Shown one piece after another: positions 2,593-9,826 of a stretch of DNA of 12,119 bases. Numbering within the stretch: the first letter of the stretch is position 1; each line of letters starts with the position of its first letter. A program made the position numbers and the translations under genes. Source of the DNA: a bacterium. Its GTDB lineage: Bacteria; Bacteroidota; Ignavibacteria; UBA10030. Under the pieces are notes generated by a model. That model did not search any database. It was not told the origin of the DNA and saw only the letters and a list, made by a program, of their open reading frames with translations. The DNA lies in the NCBI GenBank assembly GCA_043803945.1, contig JAZDJN010000109.1, forward strand, positions 1-12,119, read 5' to 3'.

Positions 2593-2630
2593 AACCCCAG
2601 TCAGTGATATAACTGACTGGGGTTTTTTAT
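2593..2630 (+). terminator. Rho-independent terminator of csp
   Basis: AACCCCAGTCAGT-gatata-ACTGACTGGGGTT, a 13-bp perfect stem followed by a T-run. Confidence 0.9.
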
Positions 2631-2894
2631 TTCTCGGAAAGGAATTTCGGTGAACAGAACACTTTAGTATTTTTTTATCGAAAAGATTGGAATTCCTAAC
2701 GGCAATAACGGTGAAGAGACCTTTAAAATTCCCCCGATTTCTTTCGTGTTAACAATGTTATGATCTGCCACGAAGTTCTCTTCCTGATGTTCTATACAAT
2801 TTTACACAAAGAGTTTTCTGAAGATCAGATTCGCGGAGAAAAGAAACTTACTCTCTATTATTTATCAAGCCTCTTTAGTCTTCGGAGAAATATC

Positions 2895-2925
2895 TTGCAA
2901 TCTGACTTTTCGTTCGCTATATTTG
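2895..2925 (+). promoter_or_regulatory. Candidate promoter upstream of the tRNA-Asp locus
   Basis: TTGCAA-N17-TATATT(TG). Confidence 0.5.
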
Positions 2926-3031
2926 AAACCAAGTTGAGCTTCTAACACTACTTCTGACACTTTTCAATCGAAGGAATCGGGCAAAGGTGAGAAGAAAGTG
3001 GAAAATGATCAGAAATCGAAGAAATTTATCA

Positions 3032-3096
3032 GGGGTCGTAGCTCCCGCCCAAAGATGAAGCATGGCGGGCAGGCGGTTTGGTTAGAGCACTTGCTT
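3032..3096 (+). pseudogene. Degenerate 5'-half copy of tRNA-Asp with a 30-nt hairpin-containing insertion
   Basis: GGGGTCGTAGCTC (3032-3044) equals tRNA nt 1-13. The insert is 3045-3074. Then GGTTTGGTTAGAGCACTTGCTT matches tRNA AGCTTGGTTAGAGCGCCTGCCT at 17/22 positions. Similarity stops just before the anticodon. Confidence 0.8.
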
Positions 3097-3131
3097 CCGG
3101 GTTGATCAAAAGATATTGTTCTTTACATATT

Positions 3132-3206
3132 GGGGTCGTAGCTCAGCTTGGTTAGAGCGCCTGCCTGTCACGCAGGAGGTCGCGAGTTCGAGTCTCGTCG
3201 GCCCCG
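3132..3206 (+). tRNA. tRNA-Asp (GTC)
   Basis: Acceptor stem GGGGTCG/CGGCCCC, D-arm GCTC/GAGC, anticodon arm CCTGC-CT GTC AC-GCAGG, T-arm GCGAG-TTCGAGT-CTCGT, discriminator G. CCA is not encoded. Confidence 0.97.
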
Positions 3207-3211
3207 CACAC

Positions 3212-3242
3212 AAAGCCCTCCCTGAAACCTTGGAGGGCTTTT
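3212..3242 (+). terminator. Terminator-like hairpin after tRNA-Asp
   Basis: AAAGCCCTCC-N10-GGAGGGCTTT followed by T. Confidence 0.7.
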
Positions 3243-3257
3243 CCATTCTATAACCTT

Positions 3258-3527
3258 ATGCCTCACTTTGTCTATATAATCCAGAGCAAACGCGATGGTT
3301 TGTACTATACCGGTTCTTCACATGATCCTGTTCTCAGATGCCAGCGACATAACGAAGGTTGGACCAGATCCACAAAATACAGGGGTCCGTGGAAATTAGT
3401 ATGGACAAAGAAATTCCCCACAAAGTCTGAAGCTCTTCAATTCGAACGCTACATTAAGAAAATGAAGAGTCGCGCTTTTATTGAACGACTGATCCGCGAC
3501 GCAGGAGGTCGTCCCGATTCCGAATAA
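3258..3527 (+). CDS. Small stand-alone GIY-YIG nuclease (YhbQ/UPF0213-like)
   Basis: FVYII...YYTG (GIY-YIG motif), R-xx-RHNEG, TK-x-RGPWKLV and catalytic-helix EALQFERYIKKMKSR. 89 aa. Confidence 0.92.
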   Translation: MPHFVYIIQSKRDGLYYTGSSHDPVLRCQRHNEGWTRSTKYRGPWKLVWTKKFPTKSEALQFERYIKKMKSRAFIERLIRDAGGRPDSE

Positions 3528-3554
3528 CGAAATCGGGAAGTCTCGTCGGCCCGC
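3499..3554 (+). repeat. tRNA-Asp 3'-half copy 1 (att-like), with T-arm nt CGAGTTCG replaced by a 27-nt hairpin
   Basis: ACGCAGGAGGTCG + TCCCGATTCCGAATAACGAAATCGGGA + AGTCTCGTCGGCCCGC, compared with tRNA ACGCAGGAGGTCG-CGAGTTCG-AGTCTCGTCGGCCCCGC. Confidence 0.92.
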
Positions 3555-3593
3555 CGAAGTCCCGAAGAAACGAAGAAGCGTCGGCACACTTCG
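3555..3593. repeat. REP-like hairpin (TCCCGA family, degenerate)
   Basis: GTCCCGA(3559-3565)...TCGGCAC(3581-3587), with outer arms CGAAGT/ACTTCG. Confidence 0.55.
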
Positions 3594-3752
3594 ATACAAA
3601 ATCCCTATTCAAGGTGATTTGTTTCGTACATCCTCTCCGATCACTATTCCGCCCGTACTTGACATTCCTTCCCGGCAATCGTAGTTTTGTATGCGACACG
3701 ATAGCACAGAACCAGCATTGATCCATTTGTTTTCATGGAGATCAAATGAAAC

Positions 3753-4127
3753 TTGCGAGATTCTCCATTCACTGATGCACCGCTTGTAGCCCCCACAGTA
3801 GTGAACCTATCGAGCGGCTTTTGGGGCAGGTACGAGGATGATCAGGTGACTGAGCATTGGATGGCATTTGTTGATGATTCCCTTTGGGGCATTGCTGTCT
3901 ATAATCCTCGCTGTCTCAATTTTCTGGCTGGGATTTCCGGTTCACCGGGTTGTGAAGCATCTGACGCTTCGACCTGTTACATTGCACCAGTCAAATACAA
4001 ATCACTAATGAAGAATTCGGTTTATGAATACGAATATTTTATCATCGTCGGTTCGCTGAGAACAATCCGGGCGACGGTGTACCGACTGCACGCTGGGGAG
4101 AAAGGAAATACAACTGATCACCAATAA
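3753..4127 (+). pseudogene. Probable 5'-truncated hypothetical protein (C-terminal fragment)
   Basis: Protein-like sequence (TEHWMAFVDDSLWGIAVYNP...STCYIAPV...YEYEYFIIVGSLRTIRATVY), but it starts at a TTG near the island's left end and reads like a C-terminal portion. No function recognised. Confidence 0.5.
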
Positions 4128-4305
4128 GATGCTACGATCTCACCGATGGAAGCAAACGAACTGCATTCTGCTCATTGTTGCTAATTCCAGCCAATAGATT
4201 CCCTGTACTATAGATCCGATTGTGATGAGATGAAAATAGAAAAACTATTTATGGTAATGTGGAATGGTATGATTTTTTTCGAAGAGTTATTTTCTGAATA
4301 GCCCT

Positions 4306-4344
4306 GGTGGCGCTCCCAAGAGCTCAGGAGGAGAGAGCGCCACC
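4306..4344. terminator. GC-rich inverted repeat downstream of the lipoprotein gene (possible terminator or mRNA stabiliser)
   Basis: GGTGGCGCTC-N19-GAGCGCCACC with perfect 10-bp arms. No adjacent U-tract. Confidence 0.4.
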
Positions 4345-4391
4345 TTCGTCGCTGGAGATCTCCACCATGAAGACCTCCACCGAATAGAGAC

Positions 4392-4901
4392 CTAGATAGG
4401 GCTAAACACAGGGCAGATCACGACAGGCCGTATGGAAAGGACATTTCCAGTATATACCAGTTGTACTACAAGGTGGGCAGAATCCGGTGCACCTGGAATT
4501 GCATAGCACTTCTCTACTACCGATCCCTCTGCAAGAGTACCACAACTCTCGCAGGACCTATCAGACACGATCCACAAACCGGATCCCACTTCAGCGGTTG
4601 AGTACTTCATAACAACATAGATCTCAATATCAGCGGTATTTGGACCTGTTCCTTTACTGGGCTGATTATCAGTTCCATTGCTCTGCGTGAGTAAGTAGAG
4701 GATTGATCCTTGTACCTGAATATTCCCGTAATCATAAGTAGATCTCAAAAATCGAACACTTTGGTTCAGGTCGAGCTTCCTTCTGCTCGATCCATCTACT
4801 CCAACCGACAAAGTTGACACAGGGCTTGATAGGTCATAATCCGAGCAACCGATTAGTAAGAACACGGTCACAAGGGCAAGAAAAAGATTCACGCGTTTCA
4901 T
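4392..4901 (-). CDS. Hypothetical lipoprotein
   Basis: MKRVNLFLALVTVFLLIG-C lipobox. AGGAGG RBS at 4907-4912. 169 aa with a Cys cluster in the C-terminal half. Confidence 0.75.
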   Translation of the reverse strand: MKRVNLFLALVTVFLLIGCSDYDLSSPVSTLSVGVDGSSRRKLDLNQSVRFLRSTYDYGNIQVQGSILYLLTQSNGTDNQPSKGTGPNTADIEIYVVMKYSTAEVGSGLWIVSDRSCESCGTLAEGSVVEKCYAIPGAPDSAHLVVQLVYTGNVLSIRPVVICPVFSPI

Positions 4902-5001
4902 AGATGCCTCCTTTTTATTGAAATGGATTGTTGTTTGCAGGGTGGGCTTGAAAAGCTTGAGATTTTTTTTTCTCTCGACTACCCATGCTGGAGTATCATC
5001 T

Positions 5002-5018
5002 TACAAGGTGCGTGCCGA
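5002..5018 (-). promoter_or_regulatory. sigma54 (-24/-12) promoter for the lipoprotein gene
   Basis: The minus strand reads TCGGCACG-CACC-TTGTA, compared with consensus YTGGCACG-N4-TTGCW. It lies about 100 bp upstream of the ATG, next to a sigma54 activator gene. Confidence 0.65.
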
Positions 5019-5074
5019 TGCACAAACGCTGAAATGGAATTGAAACACAAAGACGTGATAGTTGGAACCGCTTG

Positions 5075-5098
5075 ATTATGAGCAGCTCTGCTCATAAT
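5075..5098. promoter_or_regulatory. Perfect palindrome, candidate enhancer (UAS) for the adjacent sigma54 activator
   Basis: ATTATGAGCAG-ct-CTGCTCATAAT (11-bp arms, 2-nt spacer), about 60-80 bp upstream of the -24 box. Confidence 0.55.
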
Positions 5099-5215
5099 TG
5101 AACGATAGGCAGACTGTCAAGAGTAAATCAGATGCTGAAAATATCTGGGCAAGTATTCTTTGAGAAGGAGATGTTGGTAATGAGGGTGAGCACTACTCGC
5201 GTCGATGAATGATAT

Positions 5216-6757
5216 TCATTCCAGTCCGTACTTCTCTATCCGTCGTTGCACGGCATTGCGATCGATGCCGAGGAGGCGTGATGCTTGCGTAATATTTCCG
5301 TGAGTAGATTTGAGTGATAAATGAATAAGCTCCTTCTCCATCAATTCAAACAGATCTTTGCCCGAGGAATTTAAGGAAAGAAGCTCGTGTAATTCTTCCA
5401 GAAGCCTTTCAGATAACCGGAGTGTGCTTGAAGCCGGAAGAATACCGATGCCAACCGTACGGAGCTGTTCCGCAGTTATCTCTGCAGAAGAGATGAGGAT
5501 CGAGATTCGTTCGACGGTGTTGCGAAGTTCTCGTACGTTTCCTTTCCAGATAAGTTCTGAGAGATACCGATGTGCCTCGTTTGTAAAATGCTTTGCACTG
5601 CTGGAGAGTTCATTGAGAAATTTATCCGCGAGCAGCGGAATGTCTTCTATTCGTTTATTGAGCTGCGGCAAAGTGATGGGGACAACATTCAAACGATGAA
5701 AAAGATCTTCACGGAATTGTCCCTTCCGTATGGCATTGCGCAGATCGTTGTTTGTCGCTGCAATTACCCGCACATCCACGCGGTGGTCAACTGATGAGCC
5801 AACGCGACAAAACGACCGCTCCTCGAGAATGCGCAATAGTTTCGGCTGAAGCTCGAGTGGCATCGCTGAAATCTCATCGAGGAAGAGCGTCCCTCCATCT
5901 GCCAGCTCGAACTTTCCTTTCATGGTTGCCGTGGCTCCGGTGAATGCACCTTTTTCGTGACCGAAGAGCTCCGATTCAAACAGAGTCGAAGGAATCGCTG
6001 AACAGTTCACTGCCACAAAGGGCCGTTCAGCGCGAGGGCTCTGATAGTGTATCGCTTTTGCCGCTACCTCTTTACCCGTCCCGGTTTCACCCACGAGGAG
6101 AACTGTCGCATTTGTCACTGCAACGAGATTGATCGTATTGCGCACCTCTTCCATCGCTTGGCTTTTCCCAAGCAGTGCCGAAATACCTCGTTCCTGTTGA
6201 AGAGTCTCCTTCAAACGAATATTATCGCGAAAGAGGGTTTCGTGGAGTCTTGCGCGCAAGACAAACTGAGCAGCCAGAGGTGCCAGCACGTTGGCCTTGA
6301 GAACCTCATCGTCGGAAAACTTCCGCCCCCCTTTTGAGTTGACGAGATTGACAAAGCCAATCATTCTCTCCCCTGACAACAGAGGAACAGCGAGAGCCGG
6401 ACCAAGTATGAGTACTTCTTCTCGAGAGCTGCGAATTTTGAGATCTTTCACTACGTCCTCAACCAGAAGGGGCATTTTGTGTACTTCGAGCCATCCTGCC
6501 ACAACCGTATTCACACCGTGATCTATTTCTCCGGATGATTTGCGTGTGCTCCGGACAACCGTTTGAACTGCATCCCCTGCGGATTCTCCCACGAGCACAA
6601 CGGCAGCCCGCTCTGCCTTGCAAAGATCGAGAAAGCATTCAACAATTCCCTCGAGAGTTTCATAGACACCTACCACAGAACCGAGTGATTGTGCGAGACG
6701 GTGGACCCCCTCGAGTTCCTGTATGCGCTGCTTGAGTGAAGAGAGGTCGTTTGTCAT
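5216..6757 (-). CDS. sigma54-dependent transcriptional activator (GAF + AAA+ + Fis-type HTH)
   Basis: Walker [24 protein letters not shown], Walker [27 protein letters not shown] and C-terminal [15 protein letters not shown]-terminal GAF-like region ([20 protein letters not shown]). Confidence 0.95.
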
Positions 6758-6903
6758 TGGATGATTGGTGTGACTGCTGAAGAGAAGGTATAGATGTTTG
6801 CAAGAATAATCAATAATTCAGATCCTCTGCTTATGGAGACGGGTTTAGAGAATTTATGATAGGATGATACTCACTGGCACTCGACTTCGCGAACGTAACG
6901 GAC

Positions 6904-9555
6904 TCAGCGCTCAACGTACTTGACTAGCAGTGACTTATACCGCGGGTGCTCGCGGATCGGGTCCCACAGCGGATCTAGCCTCAGCGTGTGGACGCTGGAA
7001 TACGAAGGTCCAGCAACTAATCGTTCGATCTCGTCTAGCGCACCCTCAGCGTCGCCGATTTGTGCAAGAATCTGTGCGCGTTGTTCTGCGACCCAAAATC
7101 CTTCTTCGAAGAAGTCACGACGGTAGGGCTCTGATTGTTGCAGCCAGTGCGCCTCGCGACGTGCCTCCTCCTGACGGCCGAGCCCGGCTAGTGTGAGACC
7201 GCGGCCCGCATGCACGCGCCAGTCTTCCGGTAGTTCTCTCAGCATCGAATCAACGATTCCCAGCGACAATTTGAACGCCGCCATCGCGGCCGGGCGGTCA
7301 CCGCGCAACTGGTGTGCCCAGCCCACGAACAAGGAATTGGGCAGATAGGACGACTGCATAACGATCACTTTGTCGCGCGACAAGGAAAGGAAACTCAGCA
7401 GGCTGTCGGCTTGACGTTCCCAGTACAGAAGCATAGCATGACTGGATTTTTTAAATGTCGAGTTCATCGGCATGTGATCCAGCGCCACCCGCAGTGTGTC
7501 AAATTGCCCCTTCCAGGCGACATAGATCCATCCCTTCATTATGGCAATGCCATTCAAGTCCGGAGCGAGGCTCAAGGCATGATCGCACAACCGGACCGCC
7601 TCGGCGTAGCGATGCATCGCTTTGTAGGTATATGCGCCTAGGTCCCAGAACAGATCCGCGTCCCGCGGAGCTATCAGTGTGGCCTTCTCGAATGCGGCGA
7701 GGGCCTCATTCCAGTTCCCGAGCCGGCGCTGCGCATACCCGATCGCGCTCCAGAGCGTCCCATCATTGGGTAATCCCTTCAGTGCGATCGTGAACTCCTC
7801 CAACGCCTTCCGCCAGTCGCGGTGCGCATAATGCACCCGGCCCATCGCGATATGAGCCTGCGGTAGATCCGGCGCGAGCCGGAGCGTAGCTTCCGCTTCC
7901 TCACGCATGCGAGTTGCTCGCAACGGCGTGGGATCGGCACGTAAAAAGTACTTACGGCTATGCACCACTGAAAGTGCTGCGTGGGCCAATGCGAAACCCG
8001 AATCGAGTGCCAACGCCCGCTCAAACATATGTTGGGCGATATCCATGTTCTCTTTGACGTAGCCTGGGCGAGCATAGTACTCGCAGCCCTGAAGATAGAA
8101 CCGGTAAGCCTCGGCATTTGCCGTCGGGATCGATGTAATTCTCTCTTGTTCAGTGCTGGTGAGCGCTCCGCCCACCGCTGCAACGATCCGCTGTGCTACC
8201 TCACTCTGGATTGCAAAAGCGTCGTCCAGTGTACGGTCGTACCGCTCTGCCCACAGGTGCACGTCCGTGGTCGCATCGATCAACTGGACATTCACCCGCA
8301 ACCTCCCATCCACCACTTGCACGCTCCCCTCCACCACGCTTGCTACCCCCAGCTCGCTCGCGATTTGCCTCAATGGGGTCTTCATCCCTTCGTAGCTCAT
8401 TACCGAGGTGCGGCTGATTACTGTGAGTGCCGACACCTTCGACAGTTGTGTCAGTAGTTCGTCGTGCAGCCCACCGGCGAAATAAGCGTGCGGTCCCCCG
8501 GGGCTCAGGTTCTGGAATGGTAGTACAGCAATGGATTTGTTACGTACGTTAGTCTTGAGAGGTAAGAGGAAATACAATCCTACGAGAGCAAGCAGTACAA
8601 CTGTCACCGTACTCAAACCAATCTTTAAACGCTTTTTTGTGATTGTCGCCTTCGTCGCTCTTTGTAGGTCGGCTATCAATTCATCGATCTTTTGGTATCT
8701 GTCGGATACTTTCTTCTCCAGACACTTCTCAATAATCTTTTCTAGCTTCTGAGGAACATCTTTCCGTAAAGTAGTCACCGGCTGTGGTATTTCATTCAGT
8801 ATGTAGTACACAACGGCATCGTAAGACTCGCTCTTGAAGGGAAGCTGGCCAGTGATCATCTCATAGAGAACAACGCCGAGCGACCAGATATCGCTGCGTT
8901 GATCTAGTTTCTCCCCTATTGCTTGCTCGGGGGACATATATGCTATTGTTCCGGGTGTTGATCCAGTTTTCGTCAGCTTCGTTTGTCCCCTTAGACCCAC
9001 CTGGCCAACAATAGCGTGCTTCGCTGTTGCCTCAAGACCAGCGTCAGTTTGAGTCGATCGTTCATTCGTCAACCTCTTGCGTTCTGCTAACTTGGCAAGG
9101 CCGAAGTCGACAATTTTTACCTTCCCTTCTTTCGTCAGCATGATGTTTGCCGGTTTGATATCCCGATGTATCATCGCTGTCGAATGTGCTCTCTGCAGCC
9201 CCTTGGCTGTTTGGAGAGCAATATCGATTGCTTCACCAATCGGCAATGGCCCGCGTTCAATCTTCTTCTTTAAGGTCTCCCCTTCATACAAGTCCATGCA
9301 GATATACAATTGTCCATCTGAAGTTTCATCGATGTCGTGAATTGTGCAGATGTTATCGTGCTGGAGAGCTGATGCTGCTTGTGCCTCGCGTATAAAACGT
9401 TCTTTTGCTTCCGTGTCGCGGGTAAGTTCAGGAGGGAGAAATTTGAGGGCTACATAGCGTTTGAGTCTGGTGTCGTACGCTTTGTATACTACACCCATCC
9501 CGCCCGCACCGATGCGTTCCATGATTTTGTAGTGGGCTATGGTCGTTCCGATCAT
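6904..9555 (-). CDS. Hanks-type Ser/Thr protein kinase with TM helix, TolB-like 'SIAVLPF' domain and TPR repeats
   Basis: GAGGMGVVY, VALK, HRDIKPANIM, DFG, YMSPEQ, SDIWSLG. TM segment LSTVTVVLLALVGLYFLL, then KSIAVLPFQNLS, TPR-like helices and terminal DPLWDPIREHPRY. Confidence 0.95.
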   Translation of the reverse strand: MIGTTIAHYKIMERIGAGGMGVVYKAYDTRLKRYVALKFLPPELTRDTEAKERFIREAQAASALQHDNICTIHDIDETSDGQLYICMDLYEGETLKKKIERGPLPIGEAIDIALQTAKGLQRAHSTAMIHRDIKPANIMLTKEGKVKIVDFGLAKLAERKRLTNERSTQTDAGLEATAKHAIVGQVGLRGQTKLTKTGSTPGTIAYMSPEQAIGEKLDQRSDIWSLGVVLYEMITGQLPFKSESYDAVVYYILNEIPQPVTTLRKDVPQKLEKIIEKCLEKKVSDRYQKIDELIADLQRATKATITKKRLKIGLSTVTVVLLALVGLYFLLPLKTNVRNKSIAVLPFQNLSPGGPHAYFAGGLHDELLTQLSKVSALTVISRTSVMSYEGMKTPLRQIASELGVASVVEGSVQVVDGRLRVNVQLIDATTDVHLWAERYDRTLDDAFAIQSEVAQRIVAAVGGALTSTEQERITSIPTANAEAYRFYLQGCEYYARPGYVKENMDIAQHMFERALALDSGFALAHAALSVVHSRKYFLRADPTPLRATRMREEAEATLRLAPDLPQAHIAMGRVHYAHRDWRKALEEFTIALKGLPNDGTLWSAIGYAQRRLGNWNEALAAFEKATLIAPRDADLFWDLGAYTYKAMHRYAEAVRLCDHALSLAPDLNGIAIMKGWIYVAWKGQFDTLRVALDHMPMNSTFKKSSHAMLLYWERQADSLLSFLSLSRDKVIVMQSSYLPNSLFVGWAHQLRGDRPAAMAAFKLSLGIVDSMLRELPEDWRVHAGRGLTLAGLGRQEEARREAHWLQQSEPYRRDFFEEGFWVAEQRAQILAQIGDAEGALDEIERLVAGPSYSSVHTLRLDPLWDPIREHPRYKSLLVKYVER

Positions 9556-9770
9556 CCGTAATCCTTTGATTTACAATCGGAAGAAGATCTGAATCTATAT
9601 CGCAATCCGCGACAGAAGGCTCTCTTTGCGGATAGAAATGTCAATGCAAAGCTACTATAGTTATGAGACTAAGTCAAACCTTGAAGATTCTATTCGACGA
9701 TATTCAATGCTATTTCGCTCTCTTGAGAATCAGAAAATTACGATTTTCAATTTTCACCACCCGCTACTAC

Positions 9771-9826
9771 CGCAGGAGGTCGTCCCGATTCCGAATAACG
9801 AAATCGGGAAGTCTCGTCGGCCCCGC
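9771..9826 (+). repeat. tRNA-Asp 3'-half copy 2 (att-like) carrying the same 27-nt hairpin
   Basis: CGCAGGAGGTCG-TCCCGATTCCGAATAACGAAATCGGGA-AGTCTCGTCGGCCCCGC. Confidence 0.92.

Follow-up and report, generated by a model that had tools for sequence, protein, structure and literature searches.

What has happened to a tRNA gene that is bracketed by broken copies of itself and lies beside the gene of a small nuclease? The question is raised by tRNA-Asp(GTC) of a bacterium of the Ignavibacteria, in a stretch of 12,119 bp that is an entire contig (C109; here the window) of a 5.54-Mb assembly in 118 contigs. The original prediction for this locus was that a unit of about 400 bp, a GIY-YIG nuclease gene with a replacement tRNA, had been inserted at the anticodon of an older tRNA-Asp. 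We arrive at a different account, in which the locus is very probably one copy of a recurrent cassette, in which a small GIY-YIG gene and a tRNA piece plugged by a hairpin accompany an intact tRNA. The explanation that we favor in full, a selfish or semi-domesticated cassette whose spread is directed by its hairpin, has in our estimate a probability of roughly 0.55.

The only tRNA in the window is an intact tRNA-Asp(GTC) on the + strand at positions 3132-3207 (68 bits; ARAGORN and Rfam), which is also the sole tRNA-Asp among the 47 tRNAs of the assembly. Along the + strand lie, in order, a plugged 5' piece of tRNA-Asp (3032-3096), the intact gene, a stem-loop (3212-3241), the GIY-YIG open reading frame (ORF) P0001 (3258-3527) and a plugged 3' piece (3499-3552); this is the order originally proposed. 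BLAST within the 1.7-kb locus gave E-values of 0.001 and 3.5e-4 for the blocks of the 3' piece and 0.001 for the 5' block, and since these blocks are collinear and the arrangement is kept in other genera, a chance origin is excluded. An assembly artifact was rejected because the same architecture is found in many independent assemblies. A tRNA with an intron of the group I type was rejected as well, Rfam seeing only the intact tRNA in a scan that admitted E-values up to 10 over 2600-4200 and used the gathering score over the whole window.

Within the window the pieces do meet at the anticodon, the 5' piece running to 3096 and the 3' piece starting at 3499. Both are derived from tRNA-Asp, as had been proposed, but they are not plain halves, as each carries a hairpin insert that had been overlooked. 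The 3' piece is otherwise exact. Positions 3499-3511 correspond to linear tRNA positions 39-51, beginning directly past the anticodon, and 3539-3552 to positions 60-73, while a 27-nt hairpin, TCCCGATT..AATCGGGA, at 3512-3538 displaces 8 nt of the T-arm (CGAGTTCG). The centroid fold of this hairpin is TCCCGATTCCG-AATAA-CGAAATCGGGA, and the TAA stop codon of the GIY-YIG ORF sits within its loop. The 5' piece, in contrast, is diverged. Its start (3032-3044) is identical to tRNA positions 1-13, its D-loop position is occupied by a hairpin, TCCCGCC-(14 nt)-GGCGGG (3043-3069, with arms at 3043-3049 and 3064-3069), and the remainder is a remnant of the D-arm and anticodon stem reaching 3096, in which 3078-3088 is identical to positions 17-27 and 3089-3096, ending just before the anticodon, agrees at 5 of 8 bases. 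The D-loop hairpin forms a 6-bp stem in the centroid fold, with an energy no better than that of shuffled sequences (z +0.57); the same type of stem is present in one of the homologous loci described below (L045) and in the related genome G021.

Between the tRNA and the ORF, the stem-loop AAAGCCCTCC..GGAGGGCTTT at 3212-3241 is the one standout among the folds of the locus (-10.1 kcal/mol, z -4.5, equalled by none of 200 shuffles), and homologous stems occupy the left part of the cassette in four loci of other genera (L013, L029, L026 and L047). It looks like a terminator; a scan with a terminator consensus did not call it, because its T-run consists of only 4 T.

P0001 is a single-domain protein of 89 aa that matches Pfam PF01541 (GIY-YIG; E 9e-19, residues 3-71) and no other Pfam family; NCBIfam has no family for it. 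Only 18 residues lie beyond the GIY-YIG match, and 9 of these are encoded by the tRNA-derived piece and its hairpin, the loop of which takes up the stop codon. The superfamily's catalytic Tyr, Tyr, Arg and His and its metal-binding Glu are all present, and Y6, Y17, R27, H31 and E63 are invariant in an alignment of the tRNA-linked homologs. Among five ORFs linked to tRNA-Asp, nonsynonymous divergence (dN) is 0.14-0.24 and synonymous divergence (dS) is saturated; in the 3 of 10 pairs for which the ratio can be computed, dN/dS is 0.08-0.12. The ORF is under purifying selection. The best structure matches are 1zg2 (UPF0213 protein BH0048, E 8e-12) and 1ywl (EF2693, E 1.7e-6), which are of the same size and fold family and are named hypothetical UPF0213 proteins in the PDB; we know of no link between UPF0213 and tRNAs or hairpins.

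We examined the tRNA-Asp genes of related genera, 15 of which have the 900 nt of downstream DNA needed for evaluation. A P0001 homolog (56-80% identity) lies directly downstream in 5 of the 15, and 4 of these 5 filled loci have a hairpin-plugged 3' piece with the junction GGTCG-TCCCG..CGGGA-A(G/A)TC. The remaining filled locus (L025) has a truncated ORF and no 3' piece, and a sixth (L027), whose sequence begins within the ORF, has the 3' piece. In all, the plugged 3' piece is conserved in L013/L044, L024, L027, L029 and L045. The other ten loci have no homolog, and seven of them are free of tRNA pieces too. In L029 and L026 a second, decayed unit follows in tandem, and L026 (G032:C5) also has two near-full-length tRNA-Asp pseudo-copies in tandem, 265 and 132 nt before the intact gene, each comprising positions 1-51, a T-arm hairpin and the 3' part; its piece past the ORF contains a second large hairpin insert immediately following the anticodon loop. 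The 5' piece is an irregular partner: it is missing from L013, is represented by positions 1-15 plus hairpins in L029 and L045, and occurs in G021 as a 93%-identical, hairpin-bearing piece upstream of the intact tRNA-Asp and 15 nt from it.

The same association extends to other tRNAs in the same genome. Of 11 tblastn matches to P0001 there, 4 have an intact tRNA no more than 150 nt away, the chance for a random 240-nt segment being 0.0046, or 0.46% (binomial p 1.5e-7). These four are the window copy (C109, Asp), one on contig C99 (Pro-GGG) and two on C98 (Ser-UGA and Ser-GCU); a fifth, at a contig end on C51, has 3' pieces of tRNA-Asn next to it. One copy on C98 is decayed, with two stop codons. 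The copy on C99 is a mirror image, with tRNA-Pro positions 1-15, hairpins, the ORF and then the intact tRNA-Pro, into which the ORF reads. From the coordinates, the spacing of the repeated tRNA sequence is 329-335 bp on C109, on C99 and at the first C98 copy.

Searching for P0001 in one genome per species yielded 12 loci, labeled Bacteroidota, Ignavibacteria, Rhodothermia, Cloacimonadota, Chloroflexia, Prolixibacteraceae, Flavobacteriales and, in one bin, "Woesearchaeota". An intact tRNA on the same strand lies immediately upstream in 8 of the 12 (Asp in five, Gly-GCC, Val-GAC and Phe), 3 have tRNA pieces only and 1 has neither, bearing out the proposal that this small gene is tied to tRNA genes and their fragments. 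Two of the loci (L050 and L052) contain tandem units; together with those in L029 and L026 they are arrays of tRNA piece and nuclease gene of the kind that had been offered as an alternative to insertion. The position of the hairpin varies by group: it replaces the T-arm in the Ignavibacteria-like and Rhodothermia loci, stands directly past the anticodon loop in Bacteroidia (CTGTCA-TCCCGCC..) and takes the place of the anticodon arm at the Chloroflexia tRNA-Val locus. The tRNA-Gly(GCC) locus shares its T-arm sequence with tRNA-Asp and has the same junction. The locus in the Candidatus Woesearchaeota archaeon record (L048) has a homolog with 57% identity to P0001 and arrays of plugged pieces on both sides, and is either a cross-domain transfer or a bacterial contig in an archaeal bin.

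A search that started from the hairpin instead found the junction GGTCG-TCCCGA..TCGGGA-AGTC in at least 123 metagenome stretches, of which we fetched 80 loci. A GIY-YIG hidden Markov model matches in 45 of the 80, ending 0-80 nt before the motif in 38, and an intact tRNA-Asp is present in 35. All 58 nuclease matches and all 49 intact tRNAs in these loci are on the strand of the motif. Among the 62 loci with at least 400 nt of upstream sequence, 35 have the ORF and 39 a tRNA; repeated ORF matches and motifs occur in L124 and L127. The search pattern itself imposes 6 bp of stem; in 63 distinct inserts the pairing continues inward for a mean of 1.14 further pairs, compared with 0.22 in shuffled inserts (maximum 0.43 in 200 shuffles). 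Taken from left to right, the cassette consists of a tRNA 3' end, a conserved stem-loop, a GIY-YIG gene of about 80-90 aa and a tRNA piece plugged by a TCCCG hairpin; it resides in or beside tRNA genes, and one copy of the tRNA is always left intact next to the dead pieces.

These comparisons bear directly on the idea of a gene split in two. Among 54 instances, 51 have a 3' piece whose left end lies within linear positions 36-45 and 3 have a longer piece, so that there is no single site, and the piece in L029 even contains the anticodon; relatives with the cassette (L013, L029 and L045) lack a matching 5' half. Insertion of a 400-bp unit with its own replacement tRNA at one fixed split site is thus not supported in that form: the pieces meet at the anticodon in the window, but the breakpoints vary elsewhere. 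The conserved hallmark of the cassette is instead the hairpin that replaces a tRNA arm.

The same observations weigh on the suggestion that P0001 is a classical free-standing homing endonuclease, one that would cut double-stranded tRNA-Asp genes lacking the cassette and have the unit copied in by repair, leaving the pieces as halves of the target. That the pieces meet at the anticodon in the window, and that filled and empty tRNA-Asp loci occur side by side among relatives, would suit this account, and free-standing homing enzymes of the GIY-YIG type exist, among them T4 SegB, whose gene lies within a tRNA gene cluster (PMC13096335). P0001 likewise lies next to a tRNA gene and is patchy among relatives. 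However, with its 89 aa it is a catalytic domain alone, without the DNA-binding modules of classical homing endonucleases. SegB-type enzymes are larger, have such domains, and act on double-stranded DNA of competing phage genomes. P0001, unlike them, is chromosomal, tied to plugged tRNA pieces and nearly absent from viral contigs. Moreover, an intact and presumably cleavable tRNA-Asp adjoins the gene, the 5' half is absent from relatives that have the same cassette, the breakpoints are spread over positions 36-45, and the hairpins are left unexplained. We regard classical homing, the role originally given to this nuclease, as quite improbable.

Plugged pieces also occur without any ORF, and these bear on two further explanations. 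In the window, 9771-9823 on the + strand is an exact 53-nt copy of 3500-3552 with no adjacent ORF, and metagenome and archaeal-bin loci contain further examples, alone or in arrays (L048, L070, L099 and L128). The two window copies are 6.2 kb apart, and between them lie two ORFs of unknown function, a sigma-54 activator and a Ser/Thr kinase with TPR repeats. This distance may reflect an insertion at the plugged piece; alternatively, the copy at 9771-9823 may be a solo element that has dispersed. The DNA 3' of this copy, to about 9935, is homologous to the sequence that trails the piece in L045. Elsewhere in the genome there are many ORF-less tRNA pieces with T-loop or D-loop hairpins, derived from Met, Asn, Glu, Gln, Arg, Gly, His and Arg-UCU tRNAs and in some cases arrayed.

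Direct repeats 6.2 kb apart recall the ends of an integrated island, and the fragments could be ordinary scars of integrase-borne islands or of random tandem duplication, with the nuclease a bystander. A displaced 3' fragment (attR) is the usual mark of islands in tRNA genes, and the locus resembles them in combining an intact tRNA, foreign DNA and a direct repeat of the tRNA 3' part. Unlike such islands, it has a unit of about 330 bp and a repeat that is interrupted by a hairpin (13 nt of tRNA, the 27-nt hairpin, 14 nt of tRNA) and is not contiguous tRNA. As predicted, no integrase or transposase domain was found by Pfam in 14 ORFs of the window, nor any other recombinase domain; the 14 include every ORF longer than 120 aa within 3553-9770, between the repeats. 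The junction, the adjacency to the ORF and the orientation also recur across many unrelated assemblies. With no recombinase found and the junction recurring in this way, integrase scars are the worst-fitting of the alternatives, and we think them extremely unlikely.

The other explanation places the role of the plugged piece at the RNA level, where it would process, stabilize or terminate the nuclease mRNA, perhaps one transcribed together with the tRNA. It is in keeping with this that the stop codon lies in the hairpin loop and that the ORF reads into the piece to give the protein tail ..AGGRPD in the window, L013, L024 and L027; that tRNA, ORF and piece are always on one strand; and that a promoter scan found no sigma-70-like promoter on the + strand over 2900-3800. 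It does not account for the ORF-less plugged pieces, single or arrayed, for the 5' pieces with D-loop hairpins that lie upstream of tRNAs with no subsequent ORF, or for L029 and L026, in which the ORF stops before the plugged piece. An RNA-level role therefore seems very doubtful.

Some of the ORF-less pieces show structure of their own. Downstream of tRNA-Met and tRNA-Asn there are arrays that repeat every 99-108 nt (C102:55690-56084, C60:19300-19786, C29:8255-8400 and C51:39913-40053), each unit comprising a partial T-arm, a double hairpin at the T-loop and the 18-nt 3' end of the tRNA. These arrays probably break the assembly, since contigs end within them. A double hairpin resembling REP elements, in which TGAGCC-N3-GGCTCA precedes another short GC-rich hairpin (such as TGCGCC..GGCGCA or TCAGCC..GGCTGA), is present at 14 places in the genome (examples are at C16:146, C27:52366, C29:8311, C95:33103 and C37:199). 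At 5 of the 14 it occupies the T-loop of a dead tRNA piece (Gln, Arg, two of Asn, and Gly). The tRNA-Arg fragment on C27 bears a T-loop double hairpin of this family, and we take it to belong to the same phenomenon as the other plugged pieces. Finally, 5' pieces of tRNA-His (two copies) and tRNA-Arg(UCU) stand upstream of the intact genes at C12:886-1150 and C44:8256-8365, each followed by long hairpins and a TCCCGAC..GTCGGGA hairpin, with no ORF.

What kind of enzyme, then, would go with a hairpin? P0001 looks more like the hairpin-directed Ssn nucleases of single-stranded DNA than like the classical homing enzymes. According to Chenal et al. (2025, PMC11893778), SsnA of Neisseria meningitidis is a 94-aa single-domain GIY-YIG enzyme that binds the NTS/SRM hairpin repeat only as single-stranded DNA and cuts a few nucleotides upstream of it, an activity abolished by the changes Y6A, Y17A and E64A. 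P0001 is alike in being a single GIY-YIG domain of 89 aa with no extra DNA-binding domain, in having its catalytic Tyr, Tyr and Glu co-located (Y6, Y17 and E63 against Y6, Y17 and E64 of SsnA), and in being accompanied by GC-rich hairpins of the TCCCG type with GTC just upstream. Unlike the arrangement described there, the cassette hairpin takes the place of an arm within an incomplete tRNA copy that adjoins an intact tRNA, and there is usually one hairpin after the ORF, not hairpins on both sides. The word tRNA does not occur in the Ssn paper.

The published SRM search pattern (HGTCWYN(0-2)YYVSBRHN(0-5)WNVSBRGN(0-2)RNCYNB; PMC11893778) has 50 matches in the genome, where block shuffles gave 25-34. 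Judged by eye, the majority of these matches are near-identical (TGTCAT-TCCCGCG..GCGGGA-ATCCAG). A GIY-YIG paralog (L009) at C112:9366-9578 stands among five such canonical repeats (C112:9034-9760), in the NTS-ssnA-NTS layout described in the Ssn paper; it shows 32% identity to P0001 in our alignment. The flank of the cassette hairpin, GTC and 1 nt followed by a TCCCG stem, resembles these canonical repeats, and the local sequence, GGTCG-TCCCGATT..AATCGGGA-AGTC, is SRM-like but does not fit the pattern, from which it departs in its spacing and its longer loop. The genome has TCCCGA..TCGGGA hairpins at some 45 sites, among them sites near the paralogs on C99, C101 and C12. In 51 of 54 instances the tRNA homology of the 3' piece has its left end 1-11 nt upstream of GGTCG, a position compatible with where an Ssn-type cut would fall. 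The anticodon loop of tRNA-Asp, TGTCAC, itself fits the 5' box of the SRM pattern, HGTCWY, which may explain both why tRNA-Asp is a favored host and why the hairpin stands directly past the anticodon loop in Bacteroidia.

On this basis we suggest how the cassette might spread. The nuclease would bind its own hairpin, putatively that at 3512-3538, in single-stranded DNA and nick a few bases 5' of it, within the tRNA-derived stretch. Because this stretch is identical to the adjacent intact tRNA and near-identical across species, the break could trigger recombination, or a switch of template, with a tRNA gene. The outcomes would include tandem duplication of the unit, scattered ORF-less plugged pieces such as 9771-9823, and entry of the cassette into tRNA genes whose T-arm is identical; the 5' piece, plugged at the D-loop, would be a second footprint of the same process and not the other half of a split gene. 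An Ssn-like nick coupled to recombination at tRNA genes, drawn by analogy with SsnA, seems to us an open prospect that falls somewhat short of even odds. More tentative again is the broader proposal of a tRNA-colonizing class that combines an Ssn-like nuclease with a hairpin in a tRNA arm and uses the conservation of tRNAs as its homology across genera and phyla, the tRNA staying functional because one copy is always kept whole.

Similar logic is known from REP/BIME repeats with RAYT proteins and from IS200/IS605, in which, as discussed in the Ssn paper, short hairpin repeats multiply with a small nuclease acting on single-stranded hairpins (PMC11893778); like REP/BIME, the cassette has ORF-less hairpin copies scattered elsewhere in the genome. 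Unlike RAYT and IS200/IS605 it has no Y1/HUH transposase, and unlike REP/BIME its hairpins stand at tRNA loop positions and are joined to a partial duplication of the tRNA.

An Ssn-type system might also have been domesticated, the nuclease and the plugged pieces serving the host by restricting or tuning recombination with incoming single-stranded DNA at tRNA loci, or as decoys against integrating elements. In Neisseria, SsnA and the NTS repeats modulate transformation, and domestication is proposed by the authors of that study (PMC11893778). The strong purifying selection seen between genera, with synonymous sites at saturation, plugged pieces on both sides of the sole tRNA-Asp gene, and a near absence from viral sequences would all be in accord with a host function: a viral contig collection gave 1 match to the junction, and phage records gave only remote homologs of P0001 (13 records, all below 60% identity and none covering 80%). 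The patchy presence at the tRNA-Asp genes of relatives (5 of 15 filled, with flanks that are not syntenic) and the truncated or decayed copies (L025, the second units of L029 and L026, and the C98 copy with two stops) argue against it, and tandem amplification and occurrence in distant phyla look more selfish. We consider full domestication unlikely.

Several observations count against our favored explanation of a selfish or semi-domesticated, hairpin-directed cassette. None of the 50 matches to the strict SRM pattern is on C109, and P0001 is nearer to UPF0213 (E 8e-12) than to the SRM-flanked paralog (tblastn E 3e-4); given this better score to UPF0213, it is no more than a candidate member of the Ssn clade (cd10448). 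The hairpin regions, folded singly, are not significantly better than shuffled sequence (z -0.67, +0.57 and -1.85). Two protein-first loci (L047 and L054) have the tRNA and lack the plugged piece, 16 of the 62 metagenome loci have neither ORF nor tRNA, and in L068 and L086 the order is piece, ORF, tRNA. The strong conservation of the ORF across genera is as compatible with a gene that benefits the host as with a selfish one. Orthologs of the 494-aa protein encoded upstream are present in 15 relatives (67-70% identity), yet a syntenic empty site could not be aligned, as these orthologs are not on the contig of the tRNA-Asp gene (cross-checked in G003, G029, G036 and G037). Nuclease activity, cleavage site and movement are all inferred from sequence.

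We found no description of a GIY-YIG and hairpin cassette embedded in a tRNA in the literature searched, the scope of which did not extend to subscription journals and bioRxiv supplements. Besides the Ssn paper, the searches for a link to tRNA yielded work on mitochondrial and phage homing. If it moves as proposed, the cassette would be among the smallest autonomous DNA elements known, with one enzyme of 80-90 aa and one hairpin in about 330 bp, and would represent a new, integrase-free way to exploit tRNA genes. It would give the Ssn-type nucleases a biological context outside Neisseria, and would account for several annotation puzzles, namely dead tRNA pieces, calls of a "tRNA with insert", assembly breaks at tRNA loci, and GIY-YIG genes at the side of tRNAs. 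The natural pairs of nuclease and hairpin site could be of use in work with single-stranded DNA.

Upstream of the cassette, a cold-shock protein gene lies at 2375-2575 (Pfam CSD, E 6e-27); an ORF at 2214-2498 that overlaps it was rejected as spurious. The surrounding region, 2200-2724, is duplicated at C16:20187-20717 with 89% identity and is present in several copies in every relative.

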